From the IMG/VR virus record IMGVR_UViG_3300046834_000025, positions 1 through 64,000 of that record: a DNA stretch of 64,000 nucleotides. The stretch is one strand, 5' to 3'. Below are positions 2,967 through 50,547 of this stretch, in pieces. The translations under genes and the position numbers were made by a program. This stretch comes from a virus. The notes beneath the pieces are model-generated. The model made no database searches, was not told the DNA's origin, and worked only from the letters and a program-made list of their open reading frames with translations. The stretch's first letter is position 1, and each line of letters opens with the position of its first letter.

Positions 2967-4653
2967 TGGGTGCTCCTTCCGCCGCAACCGGTGGTCTCGC
3001 ACCGTTGGTGGGTCTGGCGGGAGCAGGCGTGCCAGCGACTGCAGGTCGGGCGCCAGGGACGGCAGGTGCACCGTTGGCTGACGCCTGTGGCGGTGGTGCC
3101 TGCGGGGTATTGCCTGGTGCCAGCGGCTTCAGAGTGTCCGGCACGCGCTGACTGCTGACCACATCTGCGCCAGACTCCGGCGTGCCGTCCAGAACTGCCA
3201 TGACGGATCTCACGATCTCTGGCATATTGTCGATCAGTTGCGGGTTACCCTGCGCGATGCTGAGCGCGATCTCGATTGCCTGTGCTGCGCTGTTCGGCGC
3301 ATCCGTCTCTTCGAAGCCCGCCGCCTCTCGGAGAGCCTTGTCGCTGATCGCGCCGACCGCGTGAAGGGTGCTGGCATCCTCGAGACGGTTTGGCCGCTGG
3401 ACCAGGTGAGAGACATCGAACTTGAGGGTGTAGCTGTCCGGGTCAGGATCGCCCTGCTGCTTCTTGATAGGCCGGTAGAAGCCGTGGGTGAGAGCATCCG
3501 CGATCAGGTCGAGACGCGGGACGACGTGGGTCTGAATGACTTCGTCGCGGACTAACCACATTCCCCAGTGGTTTGCGTCTCCCATGCCTTGCAAGAGTTC
3601 GGGAGGAGCGTCCAGACCCAGGCCAAGACGCCTGATCGCTTCCTCCCGAAGGCCGTGTGTCTCCTTGTCGAATGGCGTCGAGAACGTGTCGTAGCGAATC
3701 TTGGAGATTGAGTCGTCGGGTGCGCCCATCAAGACCGGCACGATCGCAGAAGCGTTGCTACGGTCCTCGATCGGAAGCAACATGCCCTGCATGATCGCGT
3801 TCAGAACAGGGTTCTCGGCGAAGGACTGCTGTTCGGCGGAGGATGGTGCGACCTTGGCGCTGTTCAGGATTGAGTTCGGAATCCAGTACACACCTGCTCC
3901 GGCCAACCGAGAGTCGATCTGCGCACTCACGTGCTGCGTGAGACCGACAAGCTCTCGCAGGACCGGCAAGCAGGAGATGACCGGACTGTCAGCCTGTTCC
4001 CACTCGGCAGGATGCGGATCCCAGATACGCTCGAGGTAGATCTTGTCCTCTTCGTACTCTTCGCCGCGAATCTGGACCCTGCCGTTGGTGGCCTTGACCT
4101 CGAGCTTGGAGGCGATGAACCAGATCGTGTCTTCGCCGGTCGCCGCGCCTGCGTCCGGCGCAATGGTCGAGCCGTCCAAGATCTCCTTGAGTTCCTTGCC
4201 GACCGGCACGCCGACCAGGTAGCCAGAGCCTGCCACGTAGATGTTGAGGCTCAAGCGTTCCACCATCTGCGGCGTGATGAGCGCGATGAGCGGGTCTTCG
4301 TCCTCGCTGTCGTCGACGCGTGCGCCGTCCTTCTCCACGTAGAGGATGGCCTGCGCGCATCGACCGGAGATCGCGTTGGCGATGTAGCGTAGCTCGCCAA
4401 CCTCGTTGTACATCCGCCAGACTTCCTCGTCAGCGGACGTAGAGGTTGTCGTCTGCATGGCGGAGACGGCACCTTTGGCCGTGCGCTTAGCCTTGCCCGT
4501 CACCACGCGGACAGCGGCACCTACGAGGGAGGGTGGAGGCGAGATGGCGGTGTTGTCACTGGTCGGCGCGTTGTACGACCAGGCTGGCGGGTTGACGTGT
4601 ACAGGTTGAGGCTGTGTGCGCGCCCGTCGGCGCTGCTCGAACCAACTCGCCAT
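2941..4653 (-). CDS. Portal protein
   Basis: 570 aa between terminase and MuF; RIWDPHP, SRLAGAG, IRRLGLGLDAPPELL, NHWGMW motifs of actinophage portals. Confidence 0.88.
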   Translation of the reverse strand: MASWFEQRRRARTQPQPVHVNPPAWSYNAPTSDNTAISPPPSLVGAAVRVVTGKAKRTAKGAVSAMQTTTSTSADEEVWRMYNEVGELRYIANAISGRCAQAILYVEKDGARVDDSEDEDPLIALITPQMVERLSLNIYVAGSGYLVGVPVGKELKEILDGSTIAPDAGAATGEDTIWFIASKLEVKATNGRVQIRGEEYEEDKIYLERIWDPHPAEWEQADSPVISCLPVLRELVGLTQHVSAQIDSRLAGAGVYWIPNSILNSAKVAPSSAEQQSFAENPVLNAIMQGMLLPIEDRSNASAIVPVLMGAPDDSISKIRYDTFSTPFDKETHGLREEAIRRLGLGLDAPPELLQGMGDANHWGMWLVRDEVIQTHVVPRLDLIADALTHGFYRPIKKQQGDPDPDSYTLKFDVSHLVQRPNRLEDASTLHAVGAISDKALREAAGFEETDAPNSAAQAIEIALSIAQGNPQLIDNMPEIVRSVMAVLDGTPESGADVVSSQRVPDTLKPLAPGNTPQAPPPQASANGAPAVPGARPAVAGTPAPARPTNGARPPVAAEGAPSGSGPVNG

Positions 4654-27175: not shown

Positions 27176-27240
27176 CAGTTCCGATGGGGGAGAGGCAACA
27201 CGGCCTCTCCCCACTGCGCCTGGAAGGAGGTGATGCCACG

Positions 27241-28594
27241 ATGACCTATGATCCCCGCTTGCACGAATATCAGTTGCGAGCGATCGAACATCTGCTTGGA
27301 ACCGGCGAACGCGGTTCAGCGTTGTTACTTGACATGGGCCTCGGTTGAAGGCAAGACCGCTACCGTCTTGCAGGCGATCGACGAGCGCCACCTTCCGATG
27401 CTTGTGTTGGCACCCAAGAGGGTTGCCGAAGAAGTGTGGCTGGAACAGCGTGACCTCTGGCGACCTGGTCTGGACATGGTCGTGGCGACCGGCAGCCCGA
27501 CCACGCGGGCCAACAAGCGTGCCAGAGACGCCGATGTCGTCGTCATGACCCGCGACAACGTGGGTGACTTCGGAGACCGGAAGCACCCGTTCCGCACTGT
27601 CGTCCTGGACGAGTCGTCCGGCTACAAGGACAAAGGTACCGCCCGTTGGAGGGCGACTAACAAGGTAGTCAACAAGAGTCACTTCACTTGGGCATTGACT
27701 GGCACACCTGCGCCGAACAGCTACATGGACCTCTGGGCACAGATGTACCTGCTCGACCACGGCAAGCGACTTGAGACCACGTTGGGGGCGTATAGGAACC
27801 GCTACTTCGACGCTGGACGCCGGACGAAGATCACCAACATCGTCTACGAGTGGTTGCTCAAGCCTGGTGCCAAGGACTCGATCAACAAGAGGCTTGAGGA
27901 CCTTTGCCTCTCAATGAGAGCCGAAGACTACCTGACGCTTCCAGAGCTCACCTTCAACGAGGTACGGGTCAAGATACCGCCCGTGGCGAAGCGAGCTTAT
28001 GAAGACCTGCATAAGGTCTTGGTCGCCGACCTGACGCTCATGGGAGGGTATGTCCACACTGCAGCGAACGCGGCTGTCCTCTCGAACCGTCTGCGTCAGG
28101 TGTGTGCCGGATTCCTCTACGAGGACGGCAACACGGACAACCACACCTGGTTGCACGACGAGAAGATGCGTGCGTTGCAGGAGATCGTCGATGGTACTGG
28201 CTCGCCGGTCCTGGTCTTCTACCAGTTCAAGGAGGAAGAGCGAAAGATCCTCTCTGTCATCGATGGTGCCGTCTCGATCCGCGAGCCAGGCATCATTCCT
28301 GCCTGGAACCGTGGAGAGGTACGAGCCCTGGTCGCACACCCGCAGTCAGCCGGTCACGGTCTCAACCTGCAGCACGGCGGTCACACGATCGTCTACACCA
28401 CCTTGCCGTGGTCTGGTGAGGAGTGGGAGCAGTCCGTTCACCGCCTGCACCGCCAGGGACAGCGCAACGCTGTTGTCGTCCACTGGCTCTGGGCAGGCCC
28501 GATCGACCGTACCGCCTTCAACACGGTGCAAGACAAGAAGTCCGTACAGGACGGGCTCAAGTCGTACCTCCGAGAGACAGACCTGTGGCTATGA
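27241..28594 (+). CDS. SNF2-family DNA helicase, interrupted in Walker A
   Basis: Frame from 27241 gives MTYDPRLHEYQ...LLDMGLG-stop; +1 frame resumes GKT...VLDESS...LTGTP...SAGHGLNLQHGG...RLHRQGQ. Confidence 0.85.
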
Positions 28595-29130
28595 ACTACG
28601 ATGCAGCACACTATAGTCTTCGCAAGGCGCGAGGACTCGCTTCCGCATACGCGTGCGTGAACTGCGATGCGCAGGCACGCGACTGGTCATACCAGTACAA
28701 CGCAGGGGCAGATGAGCTTACAGAAGGTCGGAGACGATACTCAGCCAACCCGGATCACTACGTGCCGATGTGTCGGCGCTGCCACAAGGCTTTCGATGCA
28801 GAGCATGATCCCTCGATCACAGAAGCTCTAGCAGCCAGTGGGCGGAGAAACATCGTACACTGCCTAGAGGTGAAGGCTGAACGGTTAGCGACTGACCCTG
28901 AATACGCTGCACGAGTTGCCGACCATGCGCGTACCATGTGGACACCAGAAGGCAGCCTGGCAGGTGGGCTGGCCGTCATGGAGAAGATCGGTCCAGAACA
29001 GTGGAGCGAGAACGCAAGTCGAGGAGGTACAACCGTCAGCAAGCAAACACGAGAGTGCGAGTGCGGGTTAATCAGCAACCCCGGAGCAGTTGGAAGACAT
29101 CTGAGTGCAACAGGGCACTCACTGAAGTGA
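28591..29130 (+). CDS. HNH-like (His-Me finger) endonuclease
   Basis: CVNC..ARDWSY...YVPMCRRCH; paralog of 45075. Confidence 0.75.
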   Translation: MNYDAAHYSLRKARGLASAYACVNCDAQARDWSYQYNAGADELTEGRRRYSANPDHYVPMCRRCHKAFDAEHDPSITEALAASGRRNIVHCLEVKAERLATDPEYAARVADHARTMWTPEGSLAGGLAVMEKIGPEQWSENASRGGTTVSKQTRECECGLISNPGAVGRHLSATGHSLK

Positions 29131-29149
29131 AGGAGACTGATCTATGGCT

Positions 29150-29377
29150 ATGAAGCTCAAGACGATCTGGACCATGCCTGCGATGAGCTTGCGAGAGCGG
29201 TTCGGTCGCACCTACGACCTGGTGCTGATCAAGCTGGCGCACCATCTGCCTGCCTCTCTCAAGTACCGCGTCTTCCTGGATGTCGGGGCAGCCAACATCC
29301 GGCCCGACGAGACCGTGCCCAGCGTGTACTATTTCGATATCCTGCAGCGCATGGAGGTTGGTCGCCGTGGCGAGTGA
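29150..29377 (+). CDS. Hypothetical protein
   Basis: AAGGAG RBS. Confidence 0.55.
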   Translation: MKLKTIWTMPAMSLRERFGRTYDLVLIKLAHHLPASLKYRVFLDVGAANIRPDETVPSVYYFDILQRMEVGRRGE

Positions 29378-48423: not shown

Positions 48424-48897
48424 ATGGCTAAGAAGGGCGAGCGGACTGCTGACCGGGTGCAGGTCACCTGTCCGTGTGGCACAGAGTTCGAAGTCACCAG
48501 ACGCCGGTTCGAGGAAGGCCGTGGTCGGCGGTGCTCCAAGCCGTGTACCTACAAGTACATGGAACGCCCAAGTGGTTTGACGTACAACATCGTTCAGGAG
48601 AACGCAGCCTGGAAGAAGCCTGGCGATGAGCCCTGGAACAAGGGCATGGTCATGAAGGACGAGATCACCTACAAGGAGCTTCACAAGTGGGTTGCACGAC
48701 ACCGTGAGAAGACTGGTGTGTGCGAGCACTGTGGAGAAACACGCAAGACCGAGTGGGCAAACAAGAGTCATACGTACCAACGCGACCTGGCCGACTGGCT
48801 TGAGTTGTGTAAGAAATGTCATGGCAAGCATGACAGCGGAGAGAATCGAGGCAAAGCCGTGGAAAAGTTCGGAGTGAAGCAGGTGGCTTGCAGATGA
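48424..48897 (+). CDS. HNH-like endonuclease
   Basis: YKELHKWV...CEHCG..EWAN...WLELCKKCH. Confidence 0.75.
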   Translation: MAKKGERTADRVQVTCPCGTEFEVTRRRFEEGRGRRCSKPCTYKYMERPSGLTYNIVQENAAWKKPGDEPWNKGMVMKDEITYKELHKWVARHREKTGVCEHCGETRKTEWANKSHTYQRDLADWLELCKKCHGKHDSGENRGKAVEKFGVKQVACR

Positions 48898-49988
48898 CCA
48901 AGCGCGTACTCCTCAGCGGAGCGGGTGGCTTCGCTGGCTCGCACGCTCTGCGGCACATCCTGGCGACGACAGACTGGGATGTCGTTGCGCCGGTCACGTT
49001 CTCTCACAAGGGTCTCAGCGACCGTATCCGACTTGCGATGGACGACATGCCGGAAGCCGCCACACGAGTCAAGGTCCTACGCTGCGACCTGGCCGCGTCG
49101 ATCAGTCCCGTGACGGACGACGCCTTCGGCCACATCGACTACGTGCTGAACTTCGCCTCTGAGTCGCACGTCGATCGCTCCATCCGGCAGCCTGGTCCGT
49201 TCATCCGCAACAACGTTGCACTCATGACGCACCTGCTCGACTGGGCGGCCAGCCGTTCAGAGCTCCAGGCTTTCATCCAGATCTCGACGGACGAGGTGTA
49301 CGGTCCCGCGCCAGTCGGCTACAACCACCACGAGTGGCACGACCAGCACTTGCCGTCGAACCCGTACAGTGCGAGCAAGGCTGCGATGGAGGACATCGCC
49401 TTCGCGTACTGGCGCACCTACGATCTGCCGATCGTGATCACGAACACGATGAACCTCGTCGGCGAGACGCAGGATGCCGAGAAGTTCGTGCCGATGACGA
49501 TCAGCAAGGTTCTCAACGGCAAGCCGATGACCATCCACGCCAGCAGGTCCGGCAAGCCTGGCAGTAGGTTCTACCTCCACGCTCGCAACCAGGCTGACGG
49601 CGTGCTGCACGTCCTAAAGTACCTCACGCAGGCAAGGACGGTCGAGTTCCAGGGCAGCACCCGCCTCTCGTGGGATCACGTCACCGACCAGGAGACCGGC
49701 GAAAGCCTGCTCCATAGCGAGGGTGGCACCAAGCCGTTCCGCTACCACATCGTTGGTGAGCGCGAGGTTGACAACCTCGAGATGGCACAGATGATCGCTC
49801 AGGCAGTTGGAAAGCCGCTGCAGTATGACCTCGTGGACTTCCATTCGAGTCGTCCTGGACACGATCTTCGCTACGGGTTGGACGGCGAGAAACTGGCAGG
49901 CATCGACTGGGCACCTCCGGTGCCGCTGGACGAGAGCCTGCAGCGCATGGTGAAGTGGACCCTCGATCACCCGGAATGGCTGCTATGA
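48894..49988 (+). CDS. dTDP-glucose 4,6-dehydratase-like (RmlB) NAD-dependent enzyme
   Basis: GAGGFAG, ASESHVDRSI, ISTDEVYG, PSNPYSASK, RPGHDLRY. Confidence 0.9.
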   Translation: MTKRVLLSGAGGFAGSHALRHILATTDWDVVAPVTFSHKGLSDRIRLAMDDMPEAATRVKVLRCDLAASISPVTDDAFGHIDYVLNFASESHVDRSIRQPGPFIRNNVALMTHLLDWAASRSELQAFIQISTDEVYGPAPVGYNHHEWHDQHLPSNPYSASKAAMEDIAFAYWRTYDLPIVITNTMNLVGETQDAEKFVPMTISKVLNGKPMTIHASRSGKPGSRFYLHARNQADGVLHVLKYLTQARTVEFQGSTRLSWDHVTDQETGESLLHSEGGTKPFRYHIVGEREVDNLEMAQMIAQAVGKPLQYDLVDFHSSRPGHDLRYGLDGEKLAGIDWAPPVPLDESLQRMVKWTLDHPEWLL

Positions 49989-50504
49989 CCAAACGGTGTC
50001 CCCGGTGTACGCGAGATCTTCCACACTCTGAGTTCGGAAGGGATAGCTGGAAACGAGACGGCCTTCAAACCTACTGCCGGACATGTTGTTCAGCGAGAAT
50101 GCAAGAGCACAAGATTCGGACAAACAAGCGTTGTCCAGACTGTGAGGCTCTCATCAGCCCCTATCGAGATCGTTGCCGCAAATGTTCTACTCTGGGTGAG
50201 AGAAGTGCTCGTTGGATCAGTGGACGGCAGAGGGATCGGAAGGGCTACGTTATCCTCAGCATAGCACAAGCACCGGGTGCTCTCAAGACACGACAGGGGG
50301 GGACAGATAGCTGAGCACCGATACGTCATGGAGCAGATCCTTGGTCGCGCTCTCCTCCCAACAGAAACCGTCCACCACAAGAACGGGGTCCGGGATGACA
50401 ACCGACCTGAGAACCTCGAGCTCTGGTCTACCAGTCAGCCACCAGGCCAGCGAATCGAGGACAAGCTCCAATGGGCTCGTGAGTTCATCCGGCTGTACGG
50501 TTGA
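49985..50504 (+). pseudogene. HNH endonuclease frameshifted at a G7 tract
   Basis: N-terminal part stops at 50314; EHRYVME...VHHKNGVRDDNRPENL lies in the +1 frame; G6 at 50296-50302 would fuse them. Confidence 0.75.
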
Positions 50505-50517
50505 TCACCCGGAATGG

Positions 50518-50547
50518 TTGCGTTGAGGCAGGTCACCGCGTTATGAT
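50518..50547 (+). promoter_or_regulatory. SigA-type promoter
   Basis: TTGCGT-N18-TATGAT. Confidence 0.6.

Follow-up and report, generated by a model that had tools for sequence, protein, structure and literature searches.

A stop-containing gap in the Walker A motif of phage SNF2-like helicase genes: candidate minimal translational bypass sites associated with HNH endonucleases

How can a phage helicase be made from a gene whose Walker A motif is broken by a stop codon and a change of frame? The question is raised by a gene in the window, i.e. the whole stretch of 64,000 nucleotides analysed here, taken from a 77.8-kb IMG/VR virus record (estimated completeness 94%, 61% G+C) of an uncultured actinobacterial phage. 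An earlier sequence-only reading had drawn attention to the matched glycine codons on either side of the break and had proposed a short ribosomal bypass from one to the other. On re-reading the sequence, the arrangement it described proved exact: a Shine-Dalgarno sequence, the ATG at 27241, and then GGT(27343) TGA A GGC(27350) AAG ACC (Table 1).

The interrupted helicase gene

The first open reading frame (ORF1), read in frame 1 from the ATG at 27241, translates as MTYDPRLHEYQLRAIEHLLGTGERGSALLLDMGLG. The source of the intact homologue P0003 calls it an SNF2 family helicase; residues 1-35 of ORF1 align with the first 35 residues of this protein at 71% identity (E 2e-15), and the downstream 414 residues match its residues 35-453 at 64% identity. 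Gly35 of P0003 is the last residue of ORF1 and also the first of the downstream alignment, so that both glycine codons of the window stand for one Gly of the normal DMGLGKT; skipping from GGT to GGC restores the motif, as had been claimed. The remainder of the gene had been called intact, and it is: frame 2, which carries the second open reading frame (ORF2), stays open until the stop codon at 28592-28594, and its product matches the Pfam domain SNF2-rel_dom (PF00176) above the cut-off (E 6e-10) and PF00271 weakly. The gene has the domain content of an SNF2-like (SF2) phage DNA helicase and lacks a contiguous Walker A motif, TGA-A (27346-27349) lying within it. Judged from the sequence, DMGLGKT would be whole again only if seven bases are skipped. 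No start codon was found 3' of the gap in the window sequence.

Table 1. Features of the helicase region in the window
Feature	Coordinates	Strand	Basis or remark
Shine-Dalgarno AAGGAGGTGA of the helicase gene	27224..27233	+	read from the sequence
ORF1, 35 codons: start Met, YQ motif, LLLDMGLG	27241..27345	+	71% identity to P0003 1-35
Open +1-frame stretch 5' of the gap, spurious N-terminus	27248..27349	+	automatic gene call of 448 aa from ATG 27248
Split Walker A stretch ATG GGC CTC GGT TGA A GGC AAG ACC	27334..27358	+	DMGLGKT in relatives without the gap
Candidate take-off codon GGT (Gly35)	27343..27345	+	GGT/GGC in 114/115 unique gap-bearing contexts
Non-coding gap, TGA (27346-27348) and A (27349)	27346..27349	+	sequence; gap shared with relatives
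Candidate landing codon GGC	27350..27352	+	downstream alignment begins at P0003 Gly35
ORF2 (+1 relative to ORF1): Walker A KT, SNF2-related domain, C-terminal helicase domain	27353..28594	+	Pfam; alignment to P0003
HNH-like gene at the helicase 3' end	28591..29130	+	phrog_4160, E 1e-18; weak phrog_1271 HNH match
Recoded duplicate of the helicase end ETDLWL-stop (cf. 28574-28594)	29133..29153	+	18/21 bases identical

The automatic gene call takes its N-terminus from the +1 frame in front of the gap. Alignment shows this stretch to be closed in relatives, which makes the called N-terminus of the window spurious. A miscall of the same kind is found in Streptococcus phage Javan422 (L350 / L028, S. 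porci DSM 23759), where the helicase CDS in GenBank starts on a spurious +1-frame sequence (MKCQHYFWIWAWAEGKT...) and the real N-terminus, MKFNPHNYQ...LFLDMGLG, lies in the other frame.

The database protein P0002 is a 97% identical relative. Phage records gave no match for DNA near-identical to the window, and a search for related loci with the single helicase protein gave no match either. The GGAGGTGATGCC context upstream of the helicase start is also present in an alignment of the GC-rich relatives L188, L189 and L191. A perfect 10-bp GC-rich hairpin (27193-27217; GGGGAGAGGC ... GCCTCTCCCC) separates the helicase ribosome-binding site from the gene 5' of it; the hairpin is probably a terminator or an RNA-stability element. 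The 64-kb window contains no tRNA genes, and a phage-encoded tRNA-Gly as helper of a hop was rejected for this reason.

Proposed route of translation

The reading that we favour, at a probability of roughly 0.7, is that the helicase would be made by a short programmed translational bypass, or stop-hop. The ribosome would read 35 codons to GGT 27343 and hold peptidyl-tRNA-Gly in the P site as the slowly decoded stop codon TGA enters the A site. The tRNA would then unpair, the mRNA would slide by seven bases, and pairing would be resumed with GGC 27350. Decoding would restart at AAG 27353 and yield a 448-residue protein with the canonical DMGLGKT Walker A motif, whose junction peptide would be GSALLLDMGLGK. 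Ribosomes that do not hop would terminate and release a 35-residue peptide, so that the gap would also throttle helicase output. The layout is observed, and from it and the comparisons given below we infer the hop and its efficiency.

Recurrence of the gap in related genes

Most of the 120 closest database proteins read ...LFLDMGLGKT, and four deviate. P0006, P0010 and P0047 start with an out-of-frame read-in ...W.W/SVEGKT that matches the +1 frame of the window, and the implied DNA is GGT TGA A GGC; for P0104 the read-in ...SVDKT implies GGT TGA C AAG, with GAC as the landing triplet. The gaps of P0010, P0047 and P0104 were deduced from these read-in peptides, i.e. at the protein level. A pattern scan of metagenome contigs for GC-rich relatives gave four loci. 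Two of them have the TGA-A gap of the window with GGT (L189, GGT TGA A GGT) or CGC (L191, GGT TGA A CGC) as landing codon; the others read GGT TGA GGT (L190) and GGT TGA GC AAG, with landing triplet AGC (L188). Relatives with the matching gap, for which the sequence-only reading had suggested a search, are thus found as L189 and L191 and, by implication, as P0006, P0010 and P0047.

Among isolated phages the closest is Glutamicibacter phage Montesquieu, whose helicase gene reads DM-TAG-CTA-ATC-GLGKT. In this cheese phage (L002, OV696619.1, positions 1474-1510) an in-frame TAG and six bases lie between DM and GLGKT, and the deposited CDS begins 3' of the break, after the Walker A motif; a hop would here go from ATG to ATC, with two of the three positions pairing. 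The helicase of Brevibacterium phage LuckyBarnes has no gap, and the isolated phages P9, phiFL4A, Fontainebleau and Emery are likewise intact.

The degenerate pattern MGLG-TGA-N-GGN-KT was found at 19 loci in IMG/VR, and 19/19 are this SNF2-like helicase. In species-representative genomes there were 41 loci, about 26 of which are the helicase; the remaining chance matches, about 15, serve as an internal control: each of the four Gly codons is represented among them, and the base that follows TGA is mostly T or C. Gap-bearing prophages occur in Streptococcus porci, S. pluranimalium, S. hepaticus, Helcococcus bovis, Oribacterium and Acidaminococcus fermentans, and in the complete genomes of Lachnospiraceae JLR.KK009 and Phosphitispora TUW77. 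The pattern scans also revealed versions of the gap with TAA and TAG, and brought the helicase loci of the type GGY-stop-(0 or 1 base)-GGN to at least 134; no GGA or GGG take-off codon was seen among those of this type in the scans. One gap allele recurs in at least ten assemblies, which excludes sequencing error for it. Among the matches listed for the in-frame form MGLG-NNN-GKT in helicase context, at least 80 loci, with 70 unique contexts, have a stop codon as the extra triplet, and a single one (L117) has a sense codon; with sense codons nearly absent, the triplet is not simply a tolerated residue. A variable-gap scan added forms with two, three, four and six bases after the stop.

Throughout the pattern scans the gap sites consist of a take-off Gly codon, a stop, 0-6 bases, a landing triplet and AAR-ACN. 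For comparison we used 215 unique contexts, 115 gap-bearing (for the in-frame form, those among the matches listed) and 100 from intact relatives. The pattern scans presuppose MGLG and a stop; the set sampled through the HNH gene, described below, is the only one free of this bias. Overall, similar gaps of 3-14 bases stand at the same spot in more than 150 related phage and prophage genes, which have diverged to about 40% identity and belong to phages of Firmicutes and Actinobacteria. A different SNF2 helicase family is represented by L193 (metagenome contig Ga0256405_10026899, positions 3717-3744), which reads …LLLDDMGLG | KTATIIYLAETL and has GGT-TA-GGT. The landing codon of this 5-base form shares bases with the stop. 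Gaps in the Walker A motif therefore extend beyond one helicase family.

Codon usage, frames and selection at the gap

In the pattern sets of the 215 unique contexts, gap and landing triplet together measure 5, 6, 7, 8, 9, 10 or 12 bases, so that all three frames occur, among close relatives too. The HNH-sampled set extends the range to 4-17 bases (4-, 5-, 10- and 17-base forms), and some of its gaps follow the first Gly of GLG. The take-off codon of the 115 gap contexts is GGT in 87, GGC in 27 and GGA in 1; the equivalent Gly of the 100 intact genes is GGC in 43, GGT in 25, GGA in 24 and GGG in 8. GGY thus accounts for 114/115 against 68/100 (Fisher p 2e-11). The landing codon is GGN in 113/115 gap contexts (GGC 51, GGA 35, GGT 27); with GGA in 35/115 and non-Gly codons in a few, re-pairing would be imperfect. 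The window itself has the matched codons of a T4 gene 60-type bypass site, GGT 27343 and GGC 27350, and a stop codon, TGA 27346, at the start of the gap. A stop also begins 39 of the 42 unique gaps of the HNH-sampled set, the other three beginning with CCA. These stop-less gaps (L358, L376 and L406) each start GGY-CCA (Gly-Pro) and are 5 to 17 bases long; a slow Gly-Pro step perhaps substitutes for the stop.

The frame after the landing codon is full length in 97/97 gap-bearing genes that are not cut by a contig end. Read in the proposed frames, the 22 codons that precede MGLG have a pN/pS of 0.48 and the 100 codons that follow KT one of 0.62; in the wrong frames it is about 1.0-1.4 (at least 1.03). 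Both halves of the helicase are under purifying selection.

Two further codons of the motif differ synonymously between the classes. The first Gly codon of MGLG is GGC in 103/115 gap genes and 20/100 intact genes, and the Leu codon is TTG or TTA in 88/115 and 19/100, respectively. The GGC bias was retained in phylogenetically independent contrasts (9.1 vs 1.3 of 18 pairs, median p 0.02), in which control sites showed no effect. It could be a determinant of the hop or a recoding of a nuclease target.

With 186 complete genes placed on a tree, the distribution of gap and intact states needs at least 25 changes, compared with a mean of 62 and a minimum of 52 for shuffled labels, and the gap-length classes need 46. 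The gap has therefore often been gained, lost and resized, which is expected if its content is untranslated. The window clusters with L188, L191 and LuckyBarnes.

RNA structure around the site

The folds of the window around the site are unremarkable (z -1.2 and -0.85). Some loci fold into a stem whose end is the take-off codon. The 54 bases ending at the take-off codon, however, have equal minimum free energies and z-scores in gap-bearing and intact genes (p 0.22 and 0.12), and the pairing of the 3' arm of the upstream stem does not differ between the two classes; an upstream hairpin as a gap-specific signal was rejected on these grounds. Neither the 48 bases after the landing codon nor the site itself showed a fold difference between gap-bearing and intact genes. 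A take-off and/or 5' stem-loop of the T4 gene 60 type was found neither in the window folds nor in the comparison of the two classes, and the stimulators that make the T4 bypass efficient seem to be absent here. The peptide preceding take-off, LLLDMGLG, is conserved helicase sequence in gap-bearing and intact genes alike.

Association with HNH endonuclease genes

In 21 gap-bearing loci and in Montesquieu (MONT_60), a gene of the Pfam HNH_3 family lies directly 5' of the helicase; it is encoded on the helicase strand, and its end is at the helicase ribosome-binding site. Of the loci with enough flank, 17/100 gap-bearing and 0/85 intact ones have HNH_3 directly upstream (p 1.5e-5), as do 3/3 of the GC-rich gap relatives with upstream flank. 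For a bias-free sample, 80 IMG/VR loci were fetched solely by similarity to the helicase-associated HNH. The SNF2-like helicase is immediately downstream in 80/80: 55, with 42 unique contexts, have the gap, 7 have the canonical motif, and in 18 the motif is intact but recoded. In the 18 recoded loci the Met of the Walker A motif is replaced by Cys or Leu (DCGLGKT, ACGLGKT, DLGLGKT). Gapless helicases beside HNH_3, mostly with Met replaced (DCGLGKT, ACGLGKT, ECGLGKT, DLGLGKT), are L388, L389, L407-L413, L416, L419 and L420, and further ones, again mostly Met-replaced, are L422, L423, L425-L427 and L430. Replacement of this Met may be an alternative, protein-level escape from the nuclease target.

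The association is observed, and from it we infer a role of the gap in immunity: the gap would most likely have arisen, or been kept, because it disrupts the DNA target of the HNH_3 homing endonuclease. For the window this role would be carried over from the relatives. No HNH_3 gene adjoins the 5' end of the window helicase; the HNH_3 genes of the window are at about 50.3 kb and 32.9 kb, and its gap is an orphan without adjoining HNH_3, as in most gap-bearing loci. A supposed HNH remnant 5' of the window helicase was rejected, the RLEGGDA similarity reflecting a shared Shine-Dalgarno sequence and the alignment showing no further homology. The HNH gene near the small terminase gene in L028 was likewise set aside; it was judged to be of a packaging type found in both the gap and the intact class.

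Two other sites in the window concern its HNH genes. The HNH-like gene at the 3' end of the helicase (Table 1) has no Pfam match and belongs to another family than the gap-associated HNH_3. Its point of insertion is exactly the helicase stop, with the recoded copy of ETDLWL-stop 3' of the gene (28574-29153); this arrangement is typical of the insertion of a free-standing homing endonuclease. In the region 48888-50526, an epimerase/dehydratase-like gene with the end ...DHPEWLL has an HNH_3 gene after it. This HNH_3 gene appears split into the overlapping frames 49955-50314 and 50277-50504, and has up to 47% identity to the helicase-associated family in BLAST segments of 45-61 residues; DHPEWL recurs at the end of the frame 50341-50526, which suggests another insertion with a duplicated gene end.

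Taken beyond the window, we consider it somewhat better than an even chance that these genes represent a large natural family of minimal stop-hop sites, 3-14-base gaps that follow GGY within the Walker A motif and owe their origin or retention to immunity against a helicase-specific HNH_3 homing endonuclease. This wider reading covers SNF2-type helicase genes of phages of Firmicutes and Actinobacteria, without detectable dedicated RNA structure.

Alternative explanations

A programmed +1 frameshift at GGT-TGA, reading GAA in the +1 frame, would give GLGEGKT, as the sequence-only reading had noted and as we agree from the sequence; the GxGKT core would be kept and the junction peptide would be GSALLLDMGLGEGK. 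We regard this as unlikely. The stop after the shift codon is the layout of prfB (RF2), where an A-site UGA triggers recoding, and the shift of the window is formally +1. The 7-base TGA forms always have a purine next, which makes the +1 codon Glu, and two homologues have an in-frame sense insertion within the motif or beside it (DMLPIGLGKT in P0120, GLGLGKT in L117), so that some insertion is tolerated. In prfB, however, the tRNA re-pairs on CUU-U with a codon that overlaps the first, and a Shine-Dalgarno stimulator lies about 3 bases upstream; the window has neither: GGT-T becomes GTT in the +1 frame, and there is no Shine-Dalgarno-like run in GACATGGGCCTC. GGU-U and GGC-U re-pair poorly in +1. 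The relatives need shifts of every frame, the 4-, 5-, 6-, 8-, 9-, 10- and 12-base forms at the same site calling for -1, +2 or readthrough, and the TAA-T, TAA-A and TAG-G forms would insert Asn, Lys and Arg. L191, with the same 7-base geometry as the window, would read GLGERKT without the Walker A Gly; taken together, the landing triplets CGC (L191), AGC (L188) and GAC (P0104) mean that a frameshift yields RKT, SKT and DKT, without the Gly of GKT. Moreover, GLGxGKT with an in-frame sense codon exists in a single homologue, against the stop of the loci counted above. The sole event that would give GLGKT across all gap forms is a hop of peptidyl-tRNA-Gly to the triplet before AAR. The short bypass from GGT to GGC over TGA-A, as first proposed, is in this respect supported by the comparative data, which favour it over a +1 frameshift.

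That the helicase gene is dead or dispensable, with the insertion a scar, for example of homing-endonuclease activity, and with no full-length protein made, appears improbable to us. In its favour, the phage of the window has several HNH genes and a remodelled helicase 3' end, and low efficiency has been described for synthetic stop-hops (work cited in bioRxiv 10.1101/2022.08.31.505936), which counts against the hop as well. Against a dead gene stand the full-length downstream frames, the pN/pS values below 1 in both halves and solely in the proposed frames, the persistence of the gap to about 40% identity across phages of Firmicutes and Actinobacteria, and the conservation of the take-off and stop features. 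It is very improbable that the break is removed before translation or does not matter, through RNA excision, stop readthrough or two separate polypeptides. The in-frame 6-, 9- and 12-base forms could in principle be translated by readthrough, and nothing else speaks specifically for these routes; readthrough is unable to join the two frames of the window, where separate polypeptides would also lack a start codon after the gap. We know of no splicing system that removes 3-14 bases, which we count against excision. An alternative genetic code or readthrough was rejected, since all three stop codons occur and the frames differ; hosts such as Streptococcus use the standard code. Least credible of all is an artefact of assembly or sequencing, or a minority DNA variant of a real phage with intact DMGLGKT. 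The record of the window is indeed metagenome-assembled, but GGT TGA A GGY is also present in the independent contig L189, the translated read-in of P0006, P0010 and P0047 implies the same layout, and genomes of isolates, as well as complete genomes, contain the gap class. An insertion of 7 bases without repeats is not what errors typically look like, and the remark that the insert is unlike a homopolymer error holds.

Significance and comparison with known systems

If the stop-hop reading is true, hopping over short gaps by ordinary bacterial ribosomes would be frequent enough to provide a replication enzyme, and bypass cassettes driven by endonucleases would be general and not an oddity of T4. 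More than 150 phage and prophage helicase genes, several of them in cultured hosts, offer a hop layout that is easily assayed, and which makes testable the efficiency of an unaided hop, the tRNA and landing pairings that suffice, and whether the gap gives protection against the neighbouring HNH. For annotation, such genes are called with false N-termini (Javan422), truncated (Montesquieu) or open to dismissal as pseudogenes.

To our knowledge very few cases of natural bypassing are on record, namely T4 gene 60 and its homologues, yeast mitochondria and, as a candidate, the Hau3 terminase. Literature searches yielded no account of bypassing within the Walker A motif of a helicase. The background given in the sequence-only reading, the layout of T4 gene 60 and the bypass of the Streptomyces phage Hau3 terminase, is correct (PMC5009743, PMC10732093). 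With T4 gene 60 the genes described here share a Gly take-off codon, an immediate stop, a matched Gly landing codon and the proposed resumption of decoding in another frame, as well as a position of the gap about 35-46 codons into a replication gene. In the relatives they also share with gene 60 and MobA an HNH gene directly upstream whose end overlaps the start region. In both systems the gap is a plausible immunity device: the T4 insert is thought to guard against the element's own nuclease (PMC5009743; bioRxiv 10.1101/2022.08.31.505936), the latter being a 2022 preprint with the topoisomerase/MobA element as its only scope. The differences are that the T4 gap has 50 bases and the gap of the window 4 (about 2-14 in relatives, landing triplet excluded), that no take-off or 5' stem-loop was detected here, and that gene 60 encodes a topoisomerase subunit whereas here the site is inside the Walker A motif of an SNF2-like helicase. 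The nuclease here is a Pfam HNH_3 protein, the hosts are Firmicutes and Actinobacteria, and the window has no adjacent HNH_3.

The synthetic stop-hops that Weiss et al. (1987; cited in PMC5009743 and PMC10732093) studied in E. coli have in common with our sites the matched codons around a stop and, as proposed here, re-pairing a few bases downstream, independent of frame and without an elaborate RNA signal. Those were engineered, whereas the layout described here is natural and conserved, and the gene that has it is under selection; a 2016 recoding review stated that no natural in-frame stop-hops were known. The terminase of Streptomyces phage PhiHau3 is the nearest actinophage precedent, with a short coding gap in an actinophage gene and a proposed hop, which has mass spectrometry support in E. 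coli (Smith et al. 2013, as presented in PMC10732093). In PhiHau3 the take-off codon is a rare UUA of the terminase gene, and that hop is considered regulatory; the sites described here differ in having a stop as A-site codon, a Gly tRNA and a link to a homing endonuclease. Set beside these systems, the sites described here would be a minimal, widespread and new form of the theme that joins translational bypass to a homing endonuclease.
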